From NCBI RefSeq assembly GCF_000015225.1, contig NC_008698.1:1749890-1781889 (forward strand): a stretch of 32,000 nt of DNA, in the 5' to 3' direction. Under the pieces are notes generated by a model that made no database searches, was not told where the DNA came from, and worked only from the letters and a program-made list of their open reading frames with translations. Shown here one piece after another: positions 3,267 through 29,291 of the stretch. Every line of letters starts with the position of its first letter. The stretch's first letter is position 1. Source of the stretch: Thermofilum pendens Hrk 5. GTDB lineage: Archaea > Thermoproteota > Thermoprotei > Thermofilales > Thermofilaceae. A program made the position numbers and the translations under genes.

Positions 3267-3914
3267 TCATTGCTTTACAATCTTCTCGAGCGCTATCCTT
3301 GAAACTGAAAACGCTAGACCCTCGGGGTCTACCCATACGGGGTACACGCTGCTCCTCCCGAAGGCGTAGTCGCCGGTAAGCCTGGAGACGTACGGCTTTA
3401 CGAGGGGGAAGCTGTCCCCCAGGAGTCTGGCTACCCCTTCTCGTATCCCTGCGGGAACCCTTTCCCTCGGGATCTCCTCCAGGAGGTTACCTAAGACAGA
3501 CCTCAACCTCGCCGTCCAGACATCCGCGACGAAGCCGTTGTACAGCTCGCCCGGCGAGGAGAGGTAGCCCGGGATCGCGCCTATGTCCAGGCTTACCTCG
3601 CCCTTCTCGGAGACGTAAGCTACCCTACCGCAGTCCACCGTGTATACTCTTAGGCATACGATGTAGCCTCCCGAGAGGTTCCTGGCGGCCGTTACTCTGA
3701 AGTAAGCCCTCCTACCCTCGTATAGCACCGAAACCGTCCTGCTACCCGTCTTCACAGGGGTTATGGGGAGCCCTGCGAGCGCGGCTTTCACGAGCGCCTC
3801 CACGGCTATCTCCGACAGGCTTCTCCCAACGATGGACTCTACGAGACCCGCTACGTCGTCGCCCGAAGCCTGCACACCTTTCCAGGTAACCCTCAAAGCT
3901 TTATCTTTTCCCAT
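3267..3914 (-). CDS. Hypothetical protein (215 aa), overlapping the 3' end of xpd by 22 nt
   Basis: Intact ORF with protein-like composition. ATG at 3914 lies inside the last codons of the helicase gene. I recognise no motif. Confidence 0.65.
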   Translation of the reverse strand: MGKDKALRVTWKGVQASGDDVAGLVESIVGRSLSEIAVEALVKAALAGLPITPVKTGSRTVSVLYEGRRAYFRVTAARNLSGGYIVCLRVYTVDCGRVAYVSEKGEVSLDIGAIPGYLSSPGELYNGFVADVWTARLRSVLGNLLEEIPRERVPAGIREGVARLLGDSFPLVKPYVSRLTGDYAFGRSSVYPVWVDPEGLAFSVSRIALEKIVKQ

Positions 3915-5746
3915 GGAGGTTCAACAGAGTCGAGATCCTGCGACTTTACCTCCACCGCGAGCTCCCGCACGTAGTCCGGAAGCAACCCCATGTAGTTCCT
4001 ATACCTTGAATCGCCTAGAACTATGACCGCTTGGTCCCTCGGGCTTCTCAACGCCCTCCCGATAGCCTGGCTAGCCCTCCTCAGGGCTGGGTACACGTAC
4101 GCGTAAAGCCTCCCCTTCTCGGGGCCGTAGAGCTCCTCGTAGTACTTTATGTATAGGTTTGTCTTCGTCGTAGGCTTCTCGAACGGGATACCCGCCAGGA
4201 AGACGCACATTAGCTCCTCTCCCGGGAAGTCCGCGCCCTCTGCGAACCTGCCTCCCATCGGGGCCAGGAGGAGCCCCCTCCCCTCCGCGGCGAGGTTTTT
4301 GAACTTCTCGAGAGCTGCGCCTGCCTCCTGCCCGGACATATCCCTCCGCTCAACGACAACCTCGTAGCCGAGCCTTTCGGCCTCCTCCTTTAAGCCAGCC
4401 TCGAGAAGCCTCTGCAGAACCCTGTAGCTAGCAGTGAACACGGCGCTGTTCCTCTTAACCCTGCCTAAAACCCTGCCGACAGCCGAGACGTACCTCTCGG
4501 CCATCTCCTCGGAGAGCTCCTCACCCCGCGTCGTCAGGTCCTTTACGAGGTAGACAGAGGCGTTTGTCTCGTCGTAGGGGCTCGGAACGGTTACCGGGGT
4601 GTAGTCGCTTAACCCCACAGTCTCGGCGAAGGCTTCGATCGGCGAGAGAGTCCCGGACATGAAGATCACCCTTCTAAACCTCCTCCAGACGCCCGAGAGT
4701 ATCTCCCCGGACCTCATGTCCCATATATTGAGGTGGACTCTGCCGTCGACCTTCTCGGCTATGAGCGCTATGCCCTTCACGCCTTCGAGGTCGACGGCCT
4801 TCCGGAGGAATTCCGCCAAGTGGTGGGCGCTACTGCGGGGCCTCGCGCCGCTCCTGTACCTCTTCTCCCTGACAAGTTCGCCGAGCCGCAGAGTCTTTTC
4901 GATGATGTCTTCGTCGAAGCCGTCGAGGAGGTCCTCCGCACGGAAGACCTCGGACCCCTCCTCCGGTAGGGAGCCGTACTTCTCCCTAACCTTCGCCTCG
5001 AGCGCCTCCACGAACCCGTACACCTCTTCGTCCCCCATCTCGGCGGCTTCCTCCTTGGCCCTCGCGATAGTCCCCTCCGTCACGGTGTCTCCGCCGAGGT
5101 TGAGTTCTTGGAGGTTGTGCGCCTCGTCGACTACGAGTATGGACTGGCTAGTCGGGAAAGCTCCTCTAAGGGTCCACGAGAGATCTTCGTCCACGACGTA
5201 GTTGTAGCTCAGGGCGACGAGGTCCGCGACTTTGAGCAACTCCCGCTGGAGGAAGTACGGGCAGACCCCCTCTCTTCTCGCCCACTCGAACACATCCCTG
5301 TAAGTTAGGGCGCCCCTCTCAAGGAGCTCGGAGTAGTCCACGCCTTCCTGCAGCCTCCTGTAGTACTTGCACCTCCTCCTTTCGCGGCTACATATGTACG
5401 ATACCTCGCTGTAGTCGAGTTGCCCGCCCCTCTCCCCGGCCAGCAGGCACATGTCCTTCTTCCCGCGCAACCCGACTGCGACGAACCTCGCGCCCGACTT
5501 CTCCCTGAAGACCCTGAACTCCTCGACCGGCCTGTCGGTCTCGCTACCCGTCCTCACCGCCCATACGACCCTCCCCCCGCGCTCCATGAATGGTAGAAGG
5601 GCGTAGATGACGACCGGTGTCTTGCCGAAGCCCGTAGGCGCCTCCAGCACGACGTTCCCGCGTTTCAACAGCTCTACGATCTTCTCGGCAACCTCCAGCT
5701 GGTGCCTCCTGGGCTTGTAGGGAAACGCGTACCTGCCGGTAACCAA
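3893..5746 (-). CDS. xpd: XPD/Rad3-family 5'-3' DNA helicase with 4Fe-4S domain
   Basis: Walker A LEAPTGFGKT, DEAH box VVDEAHNL, four Fe-S cysteines (DMCLL, YICSRERRRCKYY, GVCPYF), motif III MSGTLSP, motif V GRFAEGADFPG, motif VI QAIGRALRSPRD. TTG start at 5746. Confidence 0.9.
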   Translation of the reverse strand: MVTGRYAFPYKPRRHQLEVAEKIVELLKRGNVVLEAPTGFGKTPVVIYALLPFMERGGRVVWAVRTGSETDRPVEEFRVFREKSGARFVAVGLRGKKDMCLLAGERGGQLDYSEVSYICSRERRRCKYYRRLQEGVDYSELLERGALTYRDVFEWARREGVCPYFLQRELLKVADLVALSYNYVVDEDLSWTLRGAFPTSQSILVVDEAHNLQELNLGGDTVTEGTIARAKEEAAEMGDEEVYGFVEALEAKVREKYGSLPEEGSEVFRAEDLLDGFDEDIIEKTLRLGELVREKRYRSGARPRSSAHHLAEFLRKAVDLEGVKGIALIAEKVDGRVHLNIWDMRSGEILSGVWRRFRRVIFMSGTLSPIEAFAETVGLSDYTPVTVPSPYDETNASVYLVKDLTTRGEELSEEMAERYVSAVGRVLGRVKRNSAVFTASYRVLQRLLEAGLKEEAERLGYEVVVERRDMSGQEAGAALEKFKNLAAEGRGLLLAPMGGRFAEGADFPGEELMCVFLAGIPFEKPTTKTNLYIKYYEELYGPEKGRLYAYVYPALRRASQAIGRALRSPRDQAVIVLGDSRYRNYMGLLPDYVRELAVEVKSQDLDSVEPPWEKIKL

Positions 5747-5840: not shown

Positions 5841-6941
5841 TTGGGGAGATGCGTTTTTCGCGCGTCGGGGAGGAACGTGAAGGCTAAGGTTTGGCGAGTG
5901 GATCCCTCGGAGCCTGATGCTAAGAGCATCGAGGAGGCGGCGTCCATACTCAGGAAGGGGGGCGTGGTAGCCTTCCCCACGGAGACCGTGTACGGGCTTG
6001 GCGCCGTGTACCATATGCGTGACGCGGTTATCAGGGTGTTCAAGGTTAAGAGGAGGCCCCCCGACAACCCGCTCATACTGCACATTTCGAGCTTTTCGCA
6101 AATATACACGCTGGCATCCGAGGTCCCCGAGGCTGTGCACAGGCTCGCAGAGAAGTTCTGGCCCGGACCCCTGACAGTGGTCCTCCCGAAGACGAGCAGG
6201 GTTCCCTACGAGGTTACCGGGGGCCTCGAGAAGGTTGCCGTCCGGATGCCGGCGCACAACGTCGCGCTGAGGCTGATAGAGGCTGTCGGAGACCCTATCG
6301 CGGCTCCCAGCGCGAACCTATCCGGGAGACCTTCGCCGACCACAGCCCAGCACGTTCTAGCCGATCTAGGCGACGAGATAGACGGCGTGCTCGACGCCGG
6401 GGAGACACTGTACGGCGTTGAAAGCACGGTGATAGACCTCACCGCCGACCCCCCTGTTCTCCTGCGCCCCGGGGCGGTGCCATTAGAGGAGGTCGAAAAG
6501 GTTCTAGGCAAGGTGTGCGTGCCGGCCTTCGCGCGGGGGCTTGGCGAGGCTGAAAGGGCTCTCGCGCCCGGCACGAGGTACCGCCACTACTCCCCGAGGG
6601 CCCAGCTGGTGCTCGTCGAGCTGAAGGACTACTCGGACCTATCCAAGTTGGTAGACAGGGTTAAGAGGCTGGTTGCGGAGAACGCTGGCAGGGGGTTAAG
6701 AGTCGGCGTGCTCTGCACGGACGAGACCCGGGAGCACTACTCGGGGCTGGGTGCTGTCGTCCTGAGCCTCGGGTCTCGGAGAGACCCCTTCGGCATAGCT
6801 AGGAGGCTGTACTCGTCCTTTAGGGAGATGGACTCACTAGGCGTGGACGTAATCGTCGCGGAGGGGGTCGACGAGAGGGGGCTGGGGCTAACCATCATGA
6901 ACAGGATGCGGAAAGCCTCGACGAAGAGAGTGGTGGTCTAG
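5841..6941 (+). CDS. sua5: L-threonylcarbamoyladenylate synthase Sua5 (YrdC domain plus C-terminal Sua5 domain); true start probably GTG at 5877
   Basis: GGVVAFPTETVYGLG, PLILHI, SANLSGRPSPT and the RHYSP linker motif, with a C-terminal Sua5-type domain. Confidence 0.9.
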   Translation: MGRCVFRASGRNVKAKVWRVDPSEPDAKSIEEAASILRKGGVVAFPTETVYGLGAVYHMRDAVIRVFKVKRRPPDNPLILHISSFSQIYTLASEVPEAVHRLAEKFWPGPLTVVLPKTSRVPYEVTGGLEKVAVRMPAHNVALRLIEAVGDPIAAPSANLSGRPSPTTAQHVLADLGDEIDGVLDAGETLYGVESTVIDLTADPPVLLRPGAVPLEEVEKVLGKVCVPAFARGLGEAERALAPGTRYRHYSPRAQLVLVELKDYSDLSKLVDRVKRLVAENAGRGLRVGVLCTDETREHYSGLGAVVLSLGSRRDPFGIARRLYSSFREMDSLGVDVIVAEGVDERGLGLTIMNRMRKASTKRVVV

Positions 6942-7630
6942 CCGCCCCTCCTCTCCGGAGACCTCCCCAGCGCCCTTAGGACGTCGCTGTCCGTTACCTC
7001 GGAGAAGTCTCGGTAGAACTCGCCCACCGCGTAGAGAATGAGCGGAACCGTGACGGCGACAACCTTGTCCGCGTACCTGGACACGACGCCCAGCACGTCC
7101 CGGGCGATAACGGGCGTAGCTACTACCACCTTCTCGGCTCCCGCCTTCCTGGCGGCAATGCTGGCAGCGATCACCGTTGCACCGGTGGCCACCCCATCGT
7201 CTACGACTACCGCCGTGAAGCCTCTCAGGTCGAGGGCGGTTCCGCGGAACTTCTCGACGTAGCTGGCAACGACCCTTCTCTGGTACTCTACCTCGCTCCT
7301 TATGTAGTCCTCGCCGATGCCTAAAGCATCGACTATCTCCCTGTTGATGTAGACCGCGTCTAGCTCGGCGACGGCGCCTATGCCTAGCTCGGGGTTCCCG
7401 GGCGCTCTGAGCTTCCTCGAGACAACGACATCCAGCTGTACGCCCAGAGCCTCGCTCACGGATTTAGCGACCACAACCCCTCCCCTGGGAATGCCTAGAA
7501 CCTTCACGTCGGGACCGCCTACCCCCTCCGCGAGGAGCTTCTCGGCCAGTTGCTTCCCGGCGTCCTCCCTGTTGCGAAAAACCCTAACCACAATAGTCCA
7601 CCTTGGGGTTTCCCGATAAACGTTTCGCAC
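6938..7630 (-). CDS. Phosphoribosyltransferase-family protein (COG1926-like); true start possibly GTG at 7591
   Basis: PRPP-binding loop VVVDDGVATGATV and N-terminal FRNREDAGKQLAEKL pattern. A TATA-like TTTAT sits inside the first 13 codons of the track ORF. Confidence 0.8.
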   Translation of the reverse strand: MRNVYRETPRWTIVVRVFRNREDAGKQLAEKLLAEGVGGPDVKVLGIPRGGVVVAKSVSEALGVQLDVVVSRKLRAPGNPELGIGAVAELDAVYINREIVDALGIGEDYIRSEVEYQRRVVASYVEKFRGTALDLRGFTAVVVDDGVATGATVIAASIAARKAGAEKVVVATPVIARDVLGVVSRYADKVVAVTVPLILYAVGEFYRDFSEVTDSDVLRALGRSPERRGG

Positions 7631-7721: not shown

Positions 7722-7743
7722 AAAAAGTGGTTATTCAGAAAAA
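7722..7743 (-). terminator. Two oligo-T tracts downstream of the CBS gene
   Basis: Minus strand after the TAA stop reads ACTTTTTCTGAATAACCACTTTTTA (two T5 runs). This is typical of archaeal intrinsic termination signals. Confidence 0.5.
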
Positions 7744-7745
7744 GT

Positions 7746-8873
7746 TTACTCCAGGATCTTCCTGAGCCTTGCTAGCGAGATCCTCTTCTCCCTCTTCTTT
7801 TCCTTCGACTTCGAGAAAACCTTGTACGCCGAGTCTAGCGCTTCGTACACTGTCTCGACAGCGTCCCACCCAGAGGACCTCGCGCTATAGCTGTCGACGT
7901 CGAGCTTGATGGATACTATCGCGTCGTACCTCCTCCTGTTCCCCGACTTCTCCCTAGACTTTAGCACTACGCTCATTTCGAGTAACCTAGCCCTCCTCGA
8001 GACCTCCGAAGCTATATCCAGGCTCTTCCTGTATATGAGGTTCCTCTGGATGAAGTCCAGCTCGTCCACCCCTTCTACCCTTAGAGGGACCTTTGCTTCC
8101 TCGATCGCGGGCAGAAGCCTCCTCAGTAGCAGGTAGGGCGATATGATCCCGTAGACCTTCCCGGAGGAGTCGACGACGACAGACCCCTCGGCTATGTCTT
8201 CCACCGAGGGGTAGCCGTCTACGTGAACCGTCCTAAAGTTCGCTGTAGCTATTTTCGCGACCGGCTGTTCGAGGAAGTAGGAGGTCTCGCCCTTCACCTC
8301 GCCCAGCCTCTCACGCCTCAGGGGAGTATTGTACACGAAGTTCACTAGATCGTAGACTCTGACCACCCCCACGGCCTTCCCGTCCTCGGCTACCGGTACG
8401 AGCCTCAAGCCCAGGTCCACGATGAGCTTCCTAGCCTTCTCCAAGGGATCGCTGGGGGCCAGTGGGTCGAGCCTGTAGGCAATATGCCTCGCGGTAACCC
8501 TCGAAGAGAGACCCATACCTGCGAGCAACCTTCTCGCCGAGACTATCCCCACGACCCTTCCACCCTCCACTACTGCTAGCCCGGGTTGCCCCGTCTTGAC
8601 GAGCATCCTCGCTACCTCTGTCAAGGGGAGGGACGGCTCCACCACGGGCGCCTTTTCGAGGACACTCCCAAGCTTCGTGCCCGCTTGGTACCTTGTCCTC
8701 AAAAGCGAAAAGATAGACACTATCCCCGCGTACCTCCCCTCCCCGTCGACCACGGGCACTGCGGGGAGCTCAAACCTCCACATGCGTTCAGCGGCAACAG
8801 AAACGGTGTCGTTTAAGCCTAGGGGGTCTATCTTCGTGAAAACCCCCTGGGAAGGGGGCCCAGTAAAGCTCAT
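7746..8873 (-). CDS. Four-CBS-domain (two Bateman modules) protein with C-terminal HPF/RaiA-like domain
   Basis: Four CBS-like repeats (for example PAVPVVDGEGRYAGIVSIFSLL, GLAVVEGGRVVGIVSARRLL, RLVPVAEDGKAVGVVRVYDLV, SVVVDSSGKVYGIISPYLLL). Residues 262-375 follow the beta-alpha-beta-beta-beta-alpha pattern of HPF. Confidence 0.85.
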   Translation of the reverse strand: MSFTGPPSQGVFTKIDPLGLNDTVSVAAERMWRFELPAVPVVDGEGRYAGIVSIFSLLRTRYQAGTKLGSVLEKAPVVEPSLPLTEVARMLVKTGQPGLAVVEGGRVVGIVSARRLLAGMGLSSRVTARHIAYRLDPLAPSDPLEKARKLIVDLGLRLVPVAEDGKAVGVVRVYDLVNFVYNTPLRRERLGEVKGETSYFLEQPVAKIATANFRTVHVDGYPSVEDIAEGSVVVDSSGKVYGIISPYLLLRRLLPAIEEAKVPLRVEGVDELDFIQRNLIYRKSLDIASEVSRRARLLEMSVVLKSREKSGNRRRYDAIVSIKLDVDSYSARSSGWDAVETVYEALDSAYKVFSKSKEKKREKRISLARLRKILE

Positions 8874-8897
8874 AGCATGTTAGGATTTGCAGGAGAG

Positions 8898-8906
8898 ATA
8901 TAAAAA
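8898..8906 (-). promoter_or_regulatory. TATA-like box for the CBS/HPF-like gene
   Basis: Minus strand reads GGTTTTTATATC, centred about 29 nt upstream of the ATG at 8873. Confidence 0.5.
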
Positions 8907-9003
8907 CCTGAGCATGCAGTGCGTGAGTATTGTGCACGGCACTTACCTTGGTCTTTGTGCGCGAGCGTCGTGGCGCGGAATAATTTTCTGTACACAATAA
9001 GGG

Positions 9004-9014
9004 TTTTTTATTAA
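9004..9014 (+). promoter_or_regulatory. TATA-like box for the ferredoxin-AOR operon
   Basis: GGTTTTTTATTAAG centred about 24 nt upstream of the GTG at 9033 (leaderless arrangement). Confidence 0.5.
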
Positions 9015-9032
9015 GTGAACTGTTGGTAAGGT

Positions 9033-9428
9033 GTGCCTAGGCTGGTAATAGTAGACGTGGATAAGTGCGTGGGATGCATGTCCTGCATGTTCGCATGCTC
9101 GAGGAGGTTTGGCGAGGGTGGGCTCGCGAAGTCCGCGATACACGTTTCGAGCATAGGGGGCGTGGAGAGAGGGTTTAAGGTCGTCGTGTGCAGGGCTTGT
9201 GAGAACCCTCCCTGCGCGGCTGTATGCCCTACGAACGCCCTGGTTAGGAGGGAGGGAGGGGGAGTCGTGTTAAACCCGAGTAAGTGCGTGGGATGCGGTA
9301 ACTGCGCGAGGGCTTGCCCCATAGGGGCCGTGCAGTGGGACTACGAGAGCATGAAGCCCATAATATGCGTTCACTGTGGCTACTGCGTCAACTACTGCCC
9401 GTACGGCGTTTTATCCCTTTCGAGGTGA
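9033..9428 (+). CDS. Polyferredoxin with four 4Fe-4S cluster motifs (16 Cys), likely electron-transfer partner of the downstream AOR
   Basis: CVGCMSCMFAC, CRACENPPCAAVCP, CVGCGNCARACP, CVHCGYCVNYCP. Stop lies 6 nt before the AOR ATG. Confidence 0.9.
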   Translation: MPRLVIVDVDKCVGCMSCMFACSRRFGEGGLAKSAIHVSSIGGVERGFKVVVCRACENPPCAAVCPTNALVRREGGGVVLNPSKCVGCGNCARACPIGAVQWDYESMKPIICVHCGYCVNYCPYGVLSLSR

Positions 9429-9434
9429 GGCGGG

Positions 9435-11222
9435 ATGTCGGAGCCTATACCTAGGAAGGTGCTCTACATAGACCTTTCCTCGAAGAGATACTGGGTGGAG
9501 GACAGGCTGGACCTCTTCGAAGAGTACCTAGGCGGGACCGGCGTCGCCACGAAGCTCCTCGAGGAGGAGCTCCCCAGGAACGTTGACCCGTTGGGGCCGG
9601 AGAACGTCATCGTGTTCGCGGTGGGGCCTTTCAACGCGCTGTACCCGACGGCCTCAAAAACAGTTGCGATGTTTAAGAGCCCGCACACGGGTAACCTCGG
9701 CGAGAGCCACGCGGGCGGTAGGAGCGCGGTGGCGATAAGGCTCGCTGGGTACGGCGCCATAGTGATCAAAGGGGCGAGCGACCTGCCCGTGTGGGTGTCG
9801 GTTCACGGGGACAAGGTGTACTTCAGGGATGCGAGAGCCATATGGGGCATGACTAGTAGCCACACGGTTGGGCGGATTCTGCGCGAGGTAGAGCCCGGGT
9901 CCGGAGTAAGGACGATAATGCGCATAGGTAGAGCCGGGGAAAGGATGATCAGCTACGCGAACGTGATCACGGAGACTTACAGGCACTTCGGCAGGCTGGG
10001 GCTGGGCGCCGTCTTCGGAAGCAAAAAGCTGAAAGCACTAGTTGTGAGCGGGAAAGGCTCCGTAAGGGTGGTGGACAGAAAGGCCTACAGGGAAGTCTAC
10101 GACAAGATCTTCAAGCTGATAGTAGACAGTCCCCTCATGAAGAAGTACCACGAGATAGGGACACCTATAAACGTTAGGGTTCTGAACGCCCTCGGAGCTC
10201 TACCCTCCCTGAACCTCCAGAAGGCGAGCATAGACTCGGCTGACGCGATCTCCGGAGAGTACATCGCGACGAACTACCTTGGGAGGAGGGTCTCGTGCGC
10301 ACACTGCCCGGTTGCGTGCATACACTTAGCCGTGGTGAGGGAGCCGTACGAGGAGGAGCCGTACTTCTACAAGACCACGTTCATCGGGTACGACTACGAG
10401 CCGATATACGCGCTCGGCTCGATGCTCGGCGCCGGCGAAGCCAGAGACGTGTTGAGGCTTATAGACCTCGTGGACTCATACGGCCTAGACGCTATGACCA
10501 CGGGAGTCGTGCTCGCATGGGCCACTGAGGCGCTCAGCAGGGGGATAATCAGCGAGAAAGACCTCGCTGGGGTGAAGCTACGATGGGGCGACTACAACGC
10601 GTACATGAAGGCCGTTCAGTACATCGTCGAGCAACCGACCGAGCTGTACAGGGACCTCGCTAGGGGTGCCTTGTACGCGGCCAGGAAGTGGGGTGGAGAA
10701 GACTTCGCCCTCTCCTTCGGCGGAAACGAGATGGCCGGGTACCACACGGGCCCCGCCGCGTACGCTAACTTCGCGTTCGGGGCTAGGCACAGCCACCTCG
10801 ACAGCGCGGGCTACGACCTGGACCAGGAGACTATAGGGAGGACCCCGGAGCCCGGCGAGCTCGTTAGGAGGCTCTACGAGGAGGAGTCCTGGCGCCAAGT
10901 CCTGACGAGCTTAGTCGTCTGCCTATTCGCCAGGAAGGTGTACAAACCCGAAGTGGTCTCCGAGGCGTTGAAGCCTCTGGGGATAGAGATGAGCGTAGAC
11001 GACCTTTACAGCCTGGGCAGAAAGATCTACAGGGAGAAGTACAGGCTGAAGCTCAGGGAGGGCTTCAGGCCAGAGGACGTCTCCTTCCCGAGGAGGATCT
11101 TCGAGACGCCGACCCCCCACGGGCTCCTAAGTCCGGAGTACATGGAGAAAGTCAAGCTCGAATACGTGCGCCTAATCAGGGAGGTAACCGGGGAAGGCGC
11201 GTCAGGGCACCACGACGGGTAG
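9435..11222 (+). CDS. aor: Tungsten-type aldehyde:ferredoxin oxidoreductase family enzyme
   Basis: AOR N-terminal pattern (YLGGTGVATKLL). Cluster cysteines CAHCPVAC plus the distal VVCLFAR. Length of 595 aa is typical. GAGGTGAGG Shine-Dalgarno-like site at 9422-9430. Confidence 0.9.
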   Translation: MSEPIPRKVLYIDLSSKRYWVEDRLDLFEEYLGGTGVATKLLEEELPRNVDPLGPENVIVFAVGPFNALYPTASKTVAMFKSPHTGNLGESHAGGRSAVAIRLAGYGAIVIKGASDLPVWVSVHGDKVYFRDARAIWGMTSSHTVGRILREVEPGSGVRTIMRIGRAGERMISYANVITETYRHFGRLGLGAVFGSKKLKALVVSGKGSVRVVDRKAYREVYDKIFKLIVDSPLMKKYHEIGTPINVRVLNALGALPSLNLQKASIDSADAISGEYIATNYLGRRVSCAHCPVACIHLAVVREPYEEEPYFYKTTFIGYDYEPIYALGSMLGAGEARDVLRLIDLVDSYGLDAMTTGVVLAWATEALSRGIISEKDLAGVKLRWGDYNAYMKAVQYIVEQPTELYRDLARGALYAARKWGGEDFALSFGGNEMAGYHTGPAAYANFAFGARHSHLDSAGYDLDQETIGRTPEPGELVRRLYEEESWRQVLTSLVVCLFARKVYKPEVVSEALKPLGIEMSVDDLYSLGRKIYREKYRLKLREGFRPEDVSFPRRIFETPTPHGLLSPEYMEKVKLEYVRLIREVTGEGASGHHDG

Positions 11223-20337: not shown

Positions 20338-20997
20338 CTAGTCCTCCGTGTCCTCCGGTAGGTTCTTCTCTCTTTCCAAGCCCGGTTGCCCAGTCCTCAC
20401 GCGTACGAGCGCGTCGAGGTATTCGCCGAAGAACGCCCAAGCCGCAAACGCTCCCACCAGGAAGCCTATCCCTATGGCTATTCCAAGGGCCAACGCCAGT
20501 TTTATCTCGTTGCTCAGAGAGGCGAGGTCGACTATGAGCAGTGTTACGACGAGCAGGCTCATCATGACGAAGAACCTCTCCGTCTTCCTCTCCATACGCA
20601 TCGACTTCACTAGCGCGTCTATCACGACGAACGAGAACAGCGAGAGAACAGCCACGCTTCCAATCCTGGATATGTAGGATAGTGCCTCGCGGTAGGCCTG
20701 AGAGTACTCCGGCACGAAGACTCTGACCACGAGCGCGGCAGAGGAGGTTAAGATACCCGCGTCCGCGACGAGCACGAGTAGCGTGCTCAGAGGTATCCTG
20801 GTGCCCTCGGGGAGGCTTTTCCTCAAGTACTCGTCCAGCCTGGCGACGCTCACCAGCCACCTTATGCTCTTATTGACGAGCTTTACTACGAGGAGCGTAA
20901 CGAAAAGTATGAGCGTAGCCAGGCCTACCTTGGGTGCCAGCGCTGCTATCTCGATTACGACCTGCTGGAAGAGCTGTACCACGTCCCACTCGGGCAT
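20338..20997 (-). CDS. Small polytopic membrane protein, resembling the conserved TM-helix region found N-terminal to MscS-type channels
   Basis: 219 aa with 4-5 hydrophobic segments and an acidic tail (EKNLPEDTED). Start lies 2 nt after the upstream stop. Its stop lies 1 nt before the GT2 start. Confidence 0.7.
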   Translation of the reverse strand: MPEWDVVQLFQQVVIEIAALAPKVGLATLILFVTLLVVKLVNKSIRWLVSVARLDEYLRKSLPEGTRIPLSTLLVLVADAGILTSSAALVVRVFVPEYSQAYREALSYISRIGSVAVLSLFSFVVIDALVKSMRMERKTERFFVMMSLLVVTLLIVDLASLSNEIKLALALGIAIGIGFLVGAFAAWAFFGEYLDALVRVRTGQPGLEREKNLPEDTED

Positions 20998-20999
20998 TT

Positions 21000-22328
21000 T
21001 CAGCCACCGATAAAGAGTGCCTCGAACCTATAAATAGTGTACAGCAAGAGGAGGAGGGCTACCAGCGCCAGGGTCTCGATAAACGTCCTAACGAACTCCC
21101 TGGAGGCCTGCACCGTGAAGACATAGCCCACCAAGCTTATCGAGTATATCATTCTGCTAAACTCGTAGGCCTTTCTCTCAGGTACTATCGCCGTCTCCGG
21201 AATCGCCACGAGAGCCAAGACTGTTGCGACCAGCTTCAAGGCCGCGGCTAGGAGGAGCCCGAGGAAGGGGCTTCTCGCCAGCGTTAGCGCAACGAGCGAT
21301 GCTACGAGAAGGCCCAGGTAGTTCCCCGCGGTCATGTAGGCGCTTGCGCGCACGCGCCCCATGTGCGAGTTTATCTCAGCGAAGATCTGCATTGCGAGGA
21401 GGTTTGCAGCCATGAACGTTAACGACGTGAAAAACGATAGCCCTACGTGCATGCCCGGCAGGGGTAGAAACGGTATCACGGCTGTTAAGACGGTGTTGGC
21501 TACGAGCCCGGCTACATATGCTTTGTAGCCCTTTATCACCAGGGAGCCGATCACTCCGCCGATGTTACCTGTAATGCTGAGTGCGAGGCTCACGTAGAGA
21601 GGGGCTCCCATGTCCTTGAGGAGGGGTGCCCAGGAGAGACCTACCAGGTTGCTCCCTGCCAGCATGAAGGTCAGGACGAGGAATGCCTGGCTACCGCGTA
21701 TCAGAACCTCCTCGGAGGCCCTTCCTCCCGTTTCCACTATCTGCTTAGGGTAGGCGGGTACGAGTAGCAACGCGACCGAGCTACCCAGGCCAACTACGAA
21801 TGCCGTCACATAGGAGACGTAGTAGCTCTGAGGCGCCGGTAGAACCGCGGAGACCGCGGTCATGTAGATGGCGCCTAGAAGGGAAGCCGCCGTGCCCGCC
21901 GCGGACCTCCACACAGAGACCTTCATAACTTCCCCCACGTCGCCGAAGTACGAGTATATCAGGGATCCCAGGAATATGCTGACAACGGCGGAGACAGCGT
22001 TCCCAAGCATGTACAGGAACGCTACCACTATGGGCTTCTCCAGGAAGAAGGGCAACGTGAGCCATACGAACCTCTCGGCTATGTGGGTGGCCAGGGACAG
22101 GACCTTGAACCTCCGCGTAGCCTCCTCAGGGTACTTGTAGAGACCCCACGATAAGGCCGCCCCGCTAATGGACGTCGGCAGGAAGACTAGTGCCATGTTT
22201 TCAAGGCTGTAGCCACTGTAAGCCATCATCGGGACGAACAGGCCGCGGGTAACCGCGACGTAGAAGCCTCCGAGAAGCGCTTCTAGGACTAGCAGAACTC
22301 TCGCTAAAGCCTTCTCGGTGTTCGACAC
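21000..22328 (-). CDS. Polytopic membrane protein (about 12 TM, MFS-like topology), candidate exporter
   Basis: 442 aa, hydrophobic throughout. GTG start 14 nt after the galU-like stop, preceded by GAGAGGGGA. Confidence 0.75.
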   Translation of the reverse strand: MSNTEKALARVLLVLEALLGGFYVAVTRGLFVPMMAYSGYSLENMALVFLPTSISGAALSWGLYKYPEEATRRFKVLSLATHIAERFVWLTLPFFLEKPIVVAFLYMLGNAVSAVVSIFLGSLIYSYFGDVGEVMKVSVWRSAAGTAASLLGAIYMTAVSAVLPAPQSYYVSYVTAFVVGLGSSVALLLVPAYPKQIVETGGRASEEVLIRGSQAFLVLTFMLAGSNLVGLSWAPLLKDMGAPLYVSLALSITGNIGGVIGSLVIKGYKAYVAGLVANTVLTAVIPFLPLPGMHVGLSFFTSLTFMAANLLAMQIFAEINSHMGRVRASAYMTAGNYLGLLVASLVALTLARSPFLGLLLAAALKLVATVLALVAIPETAIVPERKAYEFSRMIYSISLVGYVFTVQASREFVRTFIETLALVALLLLLYTIYRFEALFIGG

Positions 22329-25960: not shown

Positions 25961-26932
25961 TCAGAGATCAAAGACTATTCCGGGGATTCTCGGGAAGGGT
26001 TGCACGATCCCTATGTGCCTTACGCCTGTAACCCAGAGCAGAAGCCTCTCAACGCCTATACCCGCGCCGGCACTCGGCAACAGTCTACCCTCCCTTGCCA
26101 GGTCTAGTAGAACCCTGTAGTTCTCCGGACGTACGCCGTCACGCTTCATCTTCGAAAGTATCTTCTCATATTCGTACTCCCTGCGAGCCCCCGACAGTAT
26201 CTCCCCGACCCTCGGAACGTAGAGGTCGTAGTTGTCCCACCTCCCCGTCTCGGGATCCTCGAAGTCGTAGAACTCCCTGGGAATGTTGACCACCCACACG
26301 GGCTCCTTTAAAGTGCTCCTCAGGCTCGTCTGCCACTCTTTGCCGTACTCCTCCTCCAGTTCCTTCGAATCGACGACCTTGAAGGGCGTCATTATCTCCG
26401 GTAGCTCCGACCCCAGGAAGCTGAGCTCGTGCTCCATCTCCCTCTTCAGCGACGAGACGTAGCTCTTCAGCATGTCTTCGACGAGGCTACGTATGTAGGA
26501 GGAGGAAGCCCCTCTAACCTCGAAGTCTAGCTGCGTGAATTCGTAGGCATGTATACCCGTAGAAGCCCTTTTCCTAGTCTCGATCCTGACGTTGGGAGAG
26601 AATACGAAGATCTTGGGGGAGAGAAGCGATACGAGGACTTGCTTGTGGACGATCATACTCTGCGTCGACCTAACTGTCTCCCCGTATATCTCGACCTCGA
26701 TCCTCTTCTCAATGCTGAAGTCAGGGTCGGGCCATAACGGGTCTGTCGACTTGGAAAACACTACCGGTAGCACCCAGTCGAAGCCCCGCTCGACTAGGTA
26801 CCTGGAGAGGAAGCTCAACGTATACGTCGTTATCCGGGCGATAGACCTTTTAACTTCGAGCTCCTCCTGGGAAAGCTCGTGGAGAGGCTTTACGCCGTAG
26901 TCCCTCAACAAAGTGAGGGTTTTCTGCTCCAT
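25961..26932 (-). CDS. Class IIb aaRS catalytic-core paralogue lacking an anticodon-binding domain (archaeal AsnRS-like asparagine synthetase A type)
   Basis: Motif 2-like NVRIETRKRASTGIHAYEFTQLDFE. Motif 3 GAGIGVERLLLWVTG. Only 323 aa, so there is no N-terminal OB fold. Confidence 0.75.
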   Translation of the reverse strand: MEQKTLTLLRDYGVKPLHELSQEELEVKRSIARITTYTLSFLSRYLVERGFDWVLPVVFSKSTDPLWPDPDFSIEKRIEVEIYGETVRSTQSMIVHKQVLVSLLSPKIFVFSPNVRIETRKRASTGIHAYEFTQLDFEVRGASSSYIRSLVEDMLKSYVSSLKREMEHELSFLGSELPEIMTPFKVVDSKELEEEYGKEWQTSLRSTLKEPVWVVNIPREFYDFEDPETGRWDNYDLYVPRVGEILSGARREYEYEKILSKMKRDGVRPENYRVLLDLAREGRLLPSAGAGIGVERLLLWVTGVRHIGIVQPFPRIPGIVFDL

Positions 26933-28283: not shown

Positions 28284-29291
28284 TCAGCGAGCGCCACGCC
28301 CAGCCGGGAGTACTCGCGCGCCACTACCGTTGCGTATGCGCGCTGCCCAGCTTTGGCTGAAGAAACCCGAGGATACCGCGTAGTTAAAGAGGGCCGGCAG
28401 GAGGTACCAGCTGTACTCAGTGCTGGAAGAGGCGGCTTCGACCGCCGCGTCTAGCCCTTCCAAGTAAAGGGCCACTTCCACCGCTAGTTCCTCCACGTCT
28501 AGATCCACTAGGGGGTGCTTGCGGAGAAACTGCCTCGAGGCGAACCAAAGCCTTTCGGCGTAACTCAGGAAGCCCGCCTCGGCCAGGTTCCTGGCTACCA
28601 GCAGTGCAAGGTACACGTCTGCCTCGCTCCTCAACTCTGAGAACATCCTCGCTACACCCTCGGCTACCAGTAGCGAGCCGTACCCGTCCTGGAAAGCGCC
28701 CGCTTTCAGCAACCTAGACAGGGCTACGACCCTCCTCGACCAGTCCCTAACCTTCTTTACCGACTCGACTGCTTCGCGCCAGACGGCTTCTTGCATCGGG
28801 TTCAACGCTGATGCTTCGGCGAGCGCTAGTGCCCGCCGAGAGGCCGGTAGGTAGCGGGAAAGCTCTATGGCCTCCTCCACCCGCCCGAGGTTCACCAGGC
28901 TTATAACCATCCTCGAGCGGGCCCTCCAGCTCCCTCTATCGAGTAGCGCTAGCGCTGCGCCCAGATACTCGGAGTAGCTCTTGTTAAGCTCTTTTGCAGT
29001 TTCGCTCAGCCTTGAGTACACGAAGACCTTTTTCGTGGCCGAGAGGGCGGGGAGCATCCTCTCGACTTCTCGAAGGCTTTCCTCCCACAGCATCGGCAGG
29101 TAAGCCGGCACTTCGGATAAAAGGTAGGCTTTGAGGTAGGGGTCCCTCACCGAGCGGAGGACGAAGCCGGGGTTTTGCCCCAAGAACGCCACGACCCTGG
29201 AGAACATCGCCCTCGCCAGGTCGCCCCTCCTCGACGCCGGCGCGCGCTCTACGTAACCCCTCATGTAGTCGACGTAGTCCGCTATGTTCAT
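28284..29291 (-). CDS. All-helical repeat protein (HEAT/TPR-like), function unknown; start may be M10 at 29264
   Basis: Recurrent helix-turn patterns (ALSRLLKAGAF, LVARNLAEAGF, ISLVNLGRVEEA). No catalytic motif seen. Confidence 0.65.
   Translation of the reverse strand: MNIADYVDYMRGYVERAPASRRGDLARAMFSRVVAFLGQNPGFVLRSVRDPYLKAYLLSEVPAYLPMLWEESLREVERMLPALSATKKVFVYSRLSETAKELNKSYSEYLGAALALLDRGSWRARSRMVISLVNLGRVEEAIELSRYLPASRRALALAEASALNPMQEAVWREAVESVKKVRDWSRRVVALSRLLKAGAFQDGYGSLLVAEGVARMFSELRSEADVYLALLVARNLAEAGFLSYAERLWFASRQFLRKHPLVDLDVEELAVEVALYLEGLDAAVEAASSSTEYSWYLLPALFNYAVSSGFFSQSWAARIRNGSGARVLPAGRGAR

Follow-up and report, generated by a model that had tools for sequence, protein, structure and literature searches.

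The minus-strand open reading frame that spans exactly positions 7746..8873 of the 32,000-nucleotide stretch of Thermofilum pendens Hrk5 DNA analysed here (the window) runs from an ATG start to a TAA stop codon at 7746-7748 and encodes a 375-residue protein, which we consider with high confidence to be the T. pendens orthologue of HibA (alias AHA), a ribosome hibernation factor of archaea. The encoded protein is identical to UniProt A1S180 (UniRef100_A1S180), carried in GenBank and UniProt under the names 'CBS domain-containing protein' and 'Signal-transduction protein with CBS domains', and we regard its catalogued identity, architecture, fold and family membership as established. The original prediction, made from the raw sequence, had read the protein as a candidate hibernation factor that senses nucleotides, with a CBS tetrad joined to an HPF/RaiA-like domain, a description that fold, profiles and literature support. 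Its gene coordinates and residue numbering were exact (residue 262 from nt 8090, residue 375 to nt 7749), and the C-terminal peptide that it quoted ends at residue 364, without the final 11 residues, ISLARLRKILE. The prediction also cautioned, rightly, that a description of the family might exist: the family has been published as HibA (PMC13324472) and as AHA (PMC12934967), A1S180 itself being named in the latter. The family is already known, described in 2025-2026, and a claim of novelty is not supported. The features discussed below are as follows.

7722..7743, minus strand: two T5 tracts, at most 27 nt past the stop codon; putative archaeal terminator, from sequence reading
7746..8873, minus strand: hibA/AHA gene, 375 aa plus stop; T. 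pendens Hrk5 ABL79210.1 / WP_011753475.1 / UniProt A1S180
7749..8087, minus strand: C-terminal HPF/RaiA-like domain (AlphaFold2 models, Foldseek, profiles)
8088..8114, minus strand: linker between the domains, residues 254-262 (AlphaFold2 confidence)
8115..8267, minus strand: CBS4, ~residues 203-253 (Pfam, AlphaFold2)
8271..8327, minus strand: extended CBS3-CBS4 loop, residues 183-201, TPLRRERLGEVKGETSYFL (alignment, conservation, AlphaFold2)
8328..8492, minus strand: CBS3, ~residues 128-182; motif GVVRVYD retains Asp175 (conservation, AlphaFold2)
8514..8675, minus strand: CBS2, ~residues 67-120; residues 75-118 are the top-scoring Pfam CBS stretch (Pfam, AlphaFold2)
8694..8840, minus strand: CBS1, ~residues 12-60; motif GIVSIFS lacks the ribose-binding Asp (Pfam, AlphaFold2 secondary structure)
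8898..8906, minus strand: TATA-like TTTTTATAT, centred ~29 nt upstream of the ATG; putative archaeal promoter, from sequence reading

Homology to the published family is colinear, phmmer aligning residues 35-366 of A1S180 with residues 33-381 of P. abyssi HibA (chain 9sr9_H) at E 4.7e-15, with an identity of just ~25%. The HibA proteins of P. abyssi and T. barophilus are likewise composed of four CBS repeats, a linker and an HPF/RaiA-like domain (392 aa vs 375 aa in A1S180), and the P. abyssi protein shares with A1S180 the G-E-(L/V)-x-G-E core of the CBS3-CBS4 loop, the beta2-beta3 hairpin insertion, the long basic C-terminal helix and the Asp of the CBS3 nucleotide motif; in the alignment, A1S180 has two residues fewer opposite SAL, the first archaeal insertion, which in HibA lies between beta1 and alpha1. 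We found 33 orthologues (identity 49-68%; query coverage 86-100%, at least 92% in all but one), which indicate that the hibA gene is under selection, and all those bearing a source organism name are from Thermofilaceae. Cryo-EM structures of HibA-ribosome complexes are available as PDB 9SR9-9SRF and 9T7H, the family was found in 47% of archaeal genomes, and the T. pendens genome (GCF000015225) was part of the genome set (Madru et al., Nat Commun 2026, PMC13324472). AHA (HVO_2384 of Haloferax volcanii) represents the same family under another name, and 'Thermofilum pendens (A1S180)' served as one of nine HPF-domain seeds for collecting AHA homologues across archaea (Souza et al., bioRxiv 2026, PMC12934967). 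For PDB 9L96/9L98/9L9C/9L9V, which contain a CBS protein of 406 aa whose tail resembles HPF, our literature search found no paper; that these entries represent an ARC complex was ruled out.

The extended loop between CBS3 and CBS4, modelled by AlphaFold2 as a beta-hairpin with a pLDDT of ~66, aligns to residues 188-210 of P. abyssi HibA and is the counterpart of the HibA 'PTC loop' (190-207) as well as of 'loop 3' of AHA, a protein that binds two AMP at CBS3/4 and whose loop 3 enters the PTC (Souza et al., PMC12934967). Residues T183, R187, G191, E192 and G195 are invariant or almost so across the family, and the core P-x6-G-E-(L/V)-x-G-E is kept both between A1S180 and P. abyssi HibA and within the family. 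At the same time, the loop is four residues shorter in A1S180, the limb contacting uL16 is gone, and P. abyssi Tyr195, which stacks on a universally conserved 23S adenine, is replaced by Leu190. Asp175 of CBS3, conserved to at least 90% across the family and without a corresponding Asp in CBS1, CBS2 or CBS4, is likely the ribose anchor of a predicted adenine-nucleotide site at CBS3/4. The Thr partner in the ribose-binding Thr/Asp pair of CBS3, present in P. abyssi HibA, is Arg172 in A1S180, and this Arg is conserved across Thermofilaceae. Given an Asp in CBS3 alone and the Thr-to-Arg exchange, nucleotide binding by A1S180 seems plausible, while two occupied sites, as in AHA, are not assured. 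P. abyssi HibA has an affinity order of AMP > ADP > ATP, and its ribosome-bound states are little altered by AMP or ATP (Madru et al. 2026, PMC13324472). The expectation from the sequence that ATP/AMP status is coupled directly to ribosome silencing thus goes too far; for the characterised members, too, such coupling is so far a hypothesis.

The residues contacting the 50S subunit in the PTC state of P. abyssi HibA, one of the poses of its CBS module beside those at uL5 and the L1 stalk, are identical in A1S180 at 4 of 28 positions vs 59 of 209 for the rest of the protein, and the 30S contacts are modestly enriched in positive BLOSUM62 scores (28/49 vs 25/63). As a comparison of sequences, this weak 30S enrichment without 50S enrichment does not prove the docking to be the same, nor does it disprove it. 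One could suppose that A1S180 is a true HibA/AHA member whose CBS module differs in Thermofilaceae, adopting another orientation on the 50S or binding another ligand, or none, such that energy sensing would be inapplicable. The poorly conserved 50S contacts, the Tyr195-to-Leu190 exchange, the four-residue loop deletion and the maintenance of Arg172 across Thermofilaceae all agree with this scenario, and the CBS modules of HibA and Dri bind the PTC in opposite orientations, implying that docking is evolutionarily plastic. Considering that Asp175 and the loop core are kept, and that HibA contacts mostly the rRNA backbone, where side-chain change is tolerated, we judge the scenario unlikely. We give a distinctly low probability to the Thermofilaceae branch being a functional variant that docks differently on the 50S or senses another ligand, an idea prompted by the short PTC loop, without the adenine-stacking Tyr and the uL16 limb, together with the Thr-to-Arg exchange in CBS3.

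The HPF/RaiA assignment of the C-terminal domain rests on fold and profiles, because single-sequence Pfam and BLASTP searches give nothing. Since the CBS tetrad dominated the full-length Foldseek search, the C-terminal domain was modelled on its own (AlphaFold2, pLDDT 88.0). The elements assigned by DSSP on the AlphaFold2 model (beta1 264-267, alpha1 274-294, beta2 297-310, beta3 313-324, beta4 328-335, alpha2 338-374) follow the order of one strand, one helix, three strands and one helix expected by the original prediction, and 34 of the 36 top PDB matches of the separate model are bacterial or plastid HPF/RaiA/pY/YfiA structures, such as 6eri_BV (E 1e-5) and E. coli HPF 2rql (E 2.7e-5), with TM-scores, normalised by the target, that span 0.6-0.76 for E. 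coli HPF, YfiA and plastid pY. At the level of single sequences, Pfam PF02482 (Ribosomal_S30AE) matches neither full-length A1S180 nor residues 262-375 even at E <= 10, the NCBIfam search with the C-terminal domain returns nothing, and pairwise BLASTP of A1S180 against E. coli HPF yields no alignment at E <= 100. A shallow profile restricted to Thermofilaceae reaches E. coli HPF in the PDB at E 0.5, and by hhalign at a probability of 5.7%. Twelve of 30 relatives, however, match PF02482 weakly (E <= 1), and the Thermofilaceae C-terminal-domain profile recovers from 1.84 billion proteins 28 members of a wider family, 18 of them with CBS domains and 13 matching PF02482 at E <= 0.01. The profile built from these 28 proteins finds in the PDB HibA (6.6e-8), followed by 16 HPF/RaiA sequences from bacteria at E < 0.01 (3e-4 to 6e-3), and hhalign pairs it with E. 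coli HPF at a probability of 89% (E 2.2e-6). The segment-by-segment parallel with E. coli HPF drawn earlier is therefore invisible to pairwise BLASTP but stands by fold and by hhalign, which reproduces its register for beta2-alpha2; similarly, the S30AE similarity looked for is missing from the single sequence and emerges through the relatives and the family profile. The accompanying view of HPF/RaiA as bacterial or plastid proteins only is outdated.

These comparisons also bear on whether A1S180 might be a generic CBS signal-transduction protein with a C-terminal domain that is not ribosomal, for instance a dsRNA-binding or oligomerisation module. Database names that mention CBS or signal transduction only and the unmatched S30AE model would accord with this, as would the dsRBD matches (Loquacious, Staufen, RNase III) that Foldseek ranks under HPF at E 0.01-0.1; but the HPF/RaiA structures that make up nearly all the top matches have E-values 100 to 1000 times better, the profiles connect the domain to PF02482 and E. 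coli HPF, and the homology with ribosome-bound HibA extends end to end, making this reading very improbable. In the HPF domain of A1S180, the beta2-beta3 hairpin insertion is seen as a five-residue gap in E. coli HPF opposite KSGNR; in P. abyssi HibA this insertion touches uS12. The linker in front of the domain is the least confident internal stretch of the model, with pLDDT values under 50 at residues 257-259, in keeping with the mobility of the CBS module observed in HibA.

For the N-terminal part, Pfam recognises CBS repeats in four stretches (E 3.4e-25, 88.6 bits vs a cutoff of 24) and the full-length AlphaFold2 model (pLDDT 88.2, pTM 0.80) places CBS units at ~12-60, 67-120, 128-182 and 203-253, both in agreement with the four repeats read within residues 1-255 at the outset. 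The best Foldseek matches of the full-length model are the CBS tetrads of SriA (9znf_4, E 7e-20), SriD and the N-lobe of Dri (9e7f_3, E 7e-17), then AMPK-gamma (E ~1e-13 to 1e-14), with MJ1225 also among them; the SriA, Dri, MJ1225 and AMPK-gamma matches cover 257-298 aligned columns, and the ranking, with SriA, SriD and Dri first, agrees with the published phylogeny. HibA entries are missing from these matches because the fold library stops at 2026-04-08. A weak Pfam IF3_N similarity over CBS3, found in 17 of 30 family members (best E 1.8e-5), was set aside as a fortuitous likeness to the CBS beta-alpha-beta unit, A1S180 scoring 18.5 bits vs the threshold of 26.9. We find it scarcely credible that A1S180 regulates some other process through its CBS tetrad and carries a degenerate HPF remnant, for example as a transcription factor like HhpR (CM-3 class), which is the top NCBIfam match (E 1.7e-7) and likewise has a long CBS3-CBS4 loop. 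NF053603 scores 30.7 bits vs a cutoff of 520, a generic CBS similarity only, and an HPF domain is absent from HhpR; that of A1S180 is not decaying (mean column identity in Thermofilaceae 64%, Y316 and W336 being invariant throughout the wider family), and the CBS fold matches are led by ribosome-bound SriA, SriD and Dri and include no transcription factor at their head.

Returning to A1S180 as HibA/AHA, ribosome binding, docking geometry and nucleotide response in T. pendens are what we infer from its characterised relatives: ribosome binding, translation inhibition and stationary-phase protection have been demonstrated for P. abyssi/T. barophilus HibA and H. volcanii AHA (PMC13324472, PMC12934967). 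By homology to the P. abyssi and H. volcanii cryo-EM structures, the HPF/RaiA-like domain would be seated in the 30S subunit's mRNA/tRNA channel at the decoding centre, perhaps with its long basic terminal helix directed to the mRNA exit channel. The flexibly tethered CBS tetrad would then lie on the 50S subunit with the extended CBS3-CBS4 loop inserted into the peptidyl transferase centre, and the two domains might jointly clamp the inactive 70S ribosome, keeping out tRNA and mRNA and shielding it in starvation or stress. An adenine nucleotide probably occupies the CBS3/CBS4 interface, where it may tune binding or release, HibA preferring AMP over ATP.

We need to pay attention to how this arrangement compares with other hibernation factors. 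Bacterial and plastid HPF/RaiA proteins (YfiA, pY, PSRP1; PF02482) are homologous to A1S180 at the profile level and presumably share its 30S binding site; unlike A1S180, in which the HPF domain sits behind a CBS tetrad, they stand alone or precede a dimerisation domain, and A1S180 has the five-residue hairpin insertion, a far longer terminal helix and no 100S-forming C-terminal domain. Dri of Pyrobaculum calidifontis and SriA-D / ARC-A/P of Methanosarcina and Methanolobus, which include the closest structural relatives of the A1S180 tetrad, also extend a loop to ribosome active sites and bind AMP/ATP, but they have no HPF domain; Dri blocks the 30S with a second CBS tetrad, whereas Sri and ARC are stand-alone tetrads. 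A1S180 has one tetrad (~12-253) plus the HPF domain in place of the two tetrads of Dri, of which it matches the N-lobe by its CBS part only. AMPK gamma has the same four-CBS disk fold, with nucleotide sites 3 and 4 equivalent to the CBS3/4 site, yet it has no ribosome-binding domain and works in a kinase heterotrimer, its tie to A1S180 being one of ancestry, not function.

Reading the raw sequence has independently re-derived the 2025-2026 result that archaea join an HPF/RaiA domain of bacterial type, which silences ribosomes, to a CBS nucleotide sensor resembling AMPK-gamma, a result that took HPF-based hibernation beyond bacteria and tied such hibernation to how energy sensing in eukaryotes arose. 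It adds nothing biologically new for the window, and ABL79210.1 can be firmly re-annotated as the ribosome hibernation factor HibA/AHA. The lineage-specific differences (the shortened loop, the Tyr-to-Leu and the Thr-to-Arg exchange) could give direction to comparative structural work in Thermoproteota, where one problem is answered alternatively by HibA/AHA, by Dri or by stand-alone CBS modules; from the published pattern of exclusion between such factors, HibA is predicted to be the sole hibernation factor of T. pendens.

As for the surroundings of the gene, from the position of the TATA-like TTTTTATAT we infer a leaderless or near-leaderless hibA mRNA, and the T5 tracts of the putative terminator suggest that hibA is transcribed alone. 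Searches of the 32-kb window found no tRNA or Rfam elements, and its large ORFs include no second CBS-module gene. A conserved operon around hibA was also sought; the neighbourhood is common only to Infirmifilum and absent from other Thermofilaceae, and operon context was dropped as functional evidence. A phosphoribosyltransferase gene adjoins hibA in a pairing that Infirmifilum keeps; under the improbable reading of a functional variant, this neighbour might point to nucleotide salvage. According to its genome paper, T. pendens is reportedly heavily dependent on imported metabolites. In IMG, two close homologues of A1S180 carry the name 'CBS domain-containing protein/ribosome-associated translation inhibitor RaiA'.

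The minus-strand open reading frame hibA had been placed exactly at 7746-8873 by the original prediction (ATG start, 375 codons, TAA stop), as had its HPF/RaiA-like C-terminal domain at nt 8090-7749, residues 262-375; the peptide quoted for this domain ended at residue 364, leaving out the final 11 residues, ISLARLRKILE. Exact look-up of the protein returned the 100% identical ABL79210.1, WP_011753475.1 and UniRef100_A1S180 (T. pendens Hrk5/DSM 2475), named 'CBS domain-containing protein' or 'Signal-transduction protein with CBS domains' in the databases. Four CBS repeats had been proposed and Pfam gives four CBS stretches (E 3.4e-25), while the C-terminal 114 residues in a single-sequence search matched no Pfam or NCBIfam model. 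Among 33 orthologues at 49-68% identity, all those with a named source organism are from Thermofilaceae; two carry the IMG label 'CBS domain-containing protein/ribosome-associated translation inhibitor RaiA', and PF00571 and PF02482 occur together in three more distant matches.

Judged by its sequence and predicted structure, the protein is a ribosome hibernation factor of the already known HibA/AHA family. HibA, an HPF/RaiA-like domain fused to a four-CBS module, occurs in 47% of archaeal genomes according to a survey whose set includes GCF000015225 of T. pendens (Madru et al., Nat Commun 2026, PMC13324472). According to the same study, its C-terminal domain occupies the 30S mRNA/tRNA channel and its CBS module takes three positions on the 50S subunit, at the peptidyl transferase centre (PTC), uL5 and the L1 stalk, with a 'PTC loop' (residues 190-207) wrapping the conserved A2834; the CBS module by itself binds AMP, ADP and ATP at the CBS3/4 interface with Kd of 12, 65 and 113 uM, respectively, and hibA deletion slows recovery from stationary phase (PMC13324472). 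AHA of Haloferax volcanii belongs to this family, with two AMP at CBS3/4 and loop 3 inside the PTC (Souza et al., bioRxiv 2026, PMC12934967). Because 'Thermofilum pendens (A1S180)' is one of the nine HPF-domain PSI-BLAST seeds in the Methods of that work (PMC12934967), the window protein was already catalogued as a family member, and the caution that the family may have been described already was well placed. When the whole protein was searched against PDB sequences, 9sr9_H from the P. abyssi 70S-HibA structures (9SR9-9SRF and 9T7H) ranked first, in a colinear alignment of residues 35-366 with 33-381 (E 4.7e-15).

A 406-aa 'CBS domain-containing protein' chain, PDB 9l96_a (also 9l98, 9l9c, 9l9v), resembles the window protein at its N-terminus (E 1.3e-10) and the HPF-domain profile over its residues 288-390 (E 4.1e-4); it is apparently a further HibA/AHA homologue solved on the ribosome. 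A literature search for the code 9l96 found no paper mentioning it.

The parallel to E. coli HPF drawn in the original prediction is real homology, detectable only via intermediates or fold. Pairwise BLASTP of the C-terminal domain against E. coli HPF (sequence from NC_000913.3) gave no match, and a shallow profile made from Thermofilaceae only was weak (E 0.5 to E. coli HPF in PDB; hhalign probability 5.7%). Searched against 1.84 billion representative proteins, this profile recovered 28 proteins, mostly of 360-397 aa with the match C-terminal, some stand-alone (104-134 aa); 18 of the 28 have CBS domains and 13 match PF02482 (E <= 0.01). A profile made from the recovered domains (A4) matched P. 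abyssi HibA in PDB (6.6e-8), with 16 different bacterial HPF/RaiA/YfiA sequences next (E < 0.01), and aligned to E. coli HPF with an hhalign probability of 89% (E 2.2e-6). This alignment reproduces the beta2-alpha2 register first proposed; relative to E. coli HPF, the beta2-beta3 hairpin of the domain is longer by the five inserted residues KSGNR.

Given an alignment of 30 sequences, AlphaFold2 modelled the full-length protein confidently (mean pLDDT 88.2, pTM 0.80).

Features of the window protein in the AlphaFold2 model
Residues ~12-60: CBS1
Residues ~67-120: CBS2
Residues ~128-182: CBS3
Residues 183-201: beta-hairpin loop between CBS3 and CBS4, lower-confidence part
Residues ~203-253: CBS4
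Residues ~254-262: linker, poorly ordered
C-terminal domain: beta1 264-267, alpha1 274-294, beta2 297-310, beta3 313-324, beta4 328-335
Residues 338-374: alpha2 of the C-terminal domain, 37 residues long

The best fold matches of the whole model are ribosome-bound CBS tetrads, namely SriA 9znf_4 (E 7e-20), SriD and the Dri N-lobe 9e7f_3, with MJ1225 and many AMPK-gamma chains ranking next. When the C-terminal 118 residues were modelled on their own (pLDDT 88.0) and searched against PDB, ranks 1-34 and 36 were bacterial or chloroplast HPF/RaiA/YfiA/pY structures. The lowest E-values were those of 6eri_BV (1e-5) and E. coli HPF 2rql (2.7e-5), and TM-scores normalised to the target went up to 0.76; dsRBD domains appeared only from E ~0.01. 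The fold is thus the HPF/RaiA-like one that had been expected rather than an unrelated one, and together with the A4 profile and the colinear HibA match it supports the reading of a CBS tetrad joined to an HPF/RaiA-like domain in a hibernation factor.

Published HibA-ribosome contacts (Supplementary Data 1) were transferred to T. pendens via the phmmer alignment with 9sr9_H (35-366 vs 33-381). The PTC-loop core is kept (P. abyssi/T. pendens P189/P184, G196/G191, E197/E192, L198/V193, G200/G195, E201/E196) at positions invariant or nearly so across the family alignment. At the position of the adenine-stacking Tyr195 of HibA, T. pendens has Leu190, and it lacks I203-F206, the four residues with which HibA contacts uL16. 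Overall, 50S contacts show no preferential conservation (4/28 identical vs 59/209 elsewhere); 30S contacts are mildly enriched (identical 12/49 vs 10/63, positive 28/49 vs 25/63), those kept including F288/F274, K298-R299/R282-K283, E323-K324/E308-K309, R347/R332, R376/R361 and R379/R364. It is possible but improbable that Thermofilaceae HibA has diverged in how it engages the PTC or in which ligand it senses.

Each CBS unit has a G-h-h-(T/S)-x-x-D motif, four in all, but the Asp is kept only in CBS3 (GVVRVYD, D175, >=90% conserved), where Arg172 occupies the Thr position; one adenine-nucleotide site in the T. pendens protein is therefore plausible. CBS3 also bears a weak similarity to Pfam IF3_N (PF05198) over residues 144-183 (nt ~8325-8444), found in 17/30 family members (best E 1.8e-5; window protein 18.5 bits against a 26.9-bit threshold), which is probably fortuitous, though curious for a ribosome-binding protein.

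Genes around hibA
5841-6941, plus strand: Sua5 gene, same side of hibA as the phosphoribosyltransferase gene
6938-7630, minus strand: phosphoribosyltransferase-domain gene (PF00156), 116 nt downstream of hibA, same strand
9033-11222, plus strand: ferredoxin and aldehyde:ferredoxin oxidoreductase (AOR) pair, other side, divergent from hibA

This gene order is kept in Infirmifilum and not in other Thermofilaceae, and therefore there is no conserved operon around hibA; the adjacency of hibA and the phosphoribosyltransferase gene is likewise shared with Infirmifilum (L002 6176-6823) only. On the hibA strand, a TATA-like TTTTTATAT (8898-8906) precedes the ATG by ~29 nt and two T5 tracts come after the stop codon; this suggests independent, leaderless transcription of hibA, and the T-tracts argue against co-transcription with the phosphoribosyltransferase gene. 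The AT-rich divergent intergenic region 8874-9032 (159 bp) is common to hibA and the ferredoxin/AOR pair, and carries TTAATAAAAAA (read on the hibA strand, ~9004-9014) toward its ferredoxin/AOR end. Across the window, no tRNA or Rfam element was found, nor a second CBS-tetrad gene among the large ORFs.

Elsewhere in the window, a 323-aa protein (25961-26932, minus strand) is no more than the catalytic core of a class II aminoacyl-tRNA synthetase (PF00152 tRNA-synt_2, E 8.6e-29). No anticodon-binding domain is present; the protein may be a paralogue of aaRS, AsnA-like or of another kind, and not a true synthetase. An XPD/Rad3-type helicase gene (3893-5746, minus strand; DEAD_2, HBB, Helicase_C_2; called TTG start at 5746) overlaps at its 3' end by 22 nt the start of the next downstream gene (3267-3914, minus strand), whose 215-aa product has no Pfam match. 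For three sizeable ORFs (219, 442 and 335 aa) in 20338-22328 and 28284-29291, both minus strand, Pfam gave no match at E <= 1e-5; the 219-aa and 442-aa ORFs have a family-2 glycosyltransferase on one side and a nucleotidyl transferase on the other, and may be part of a surface-glycan cluster.
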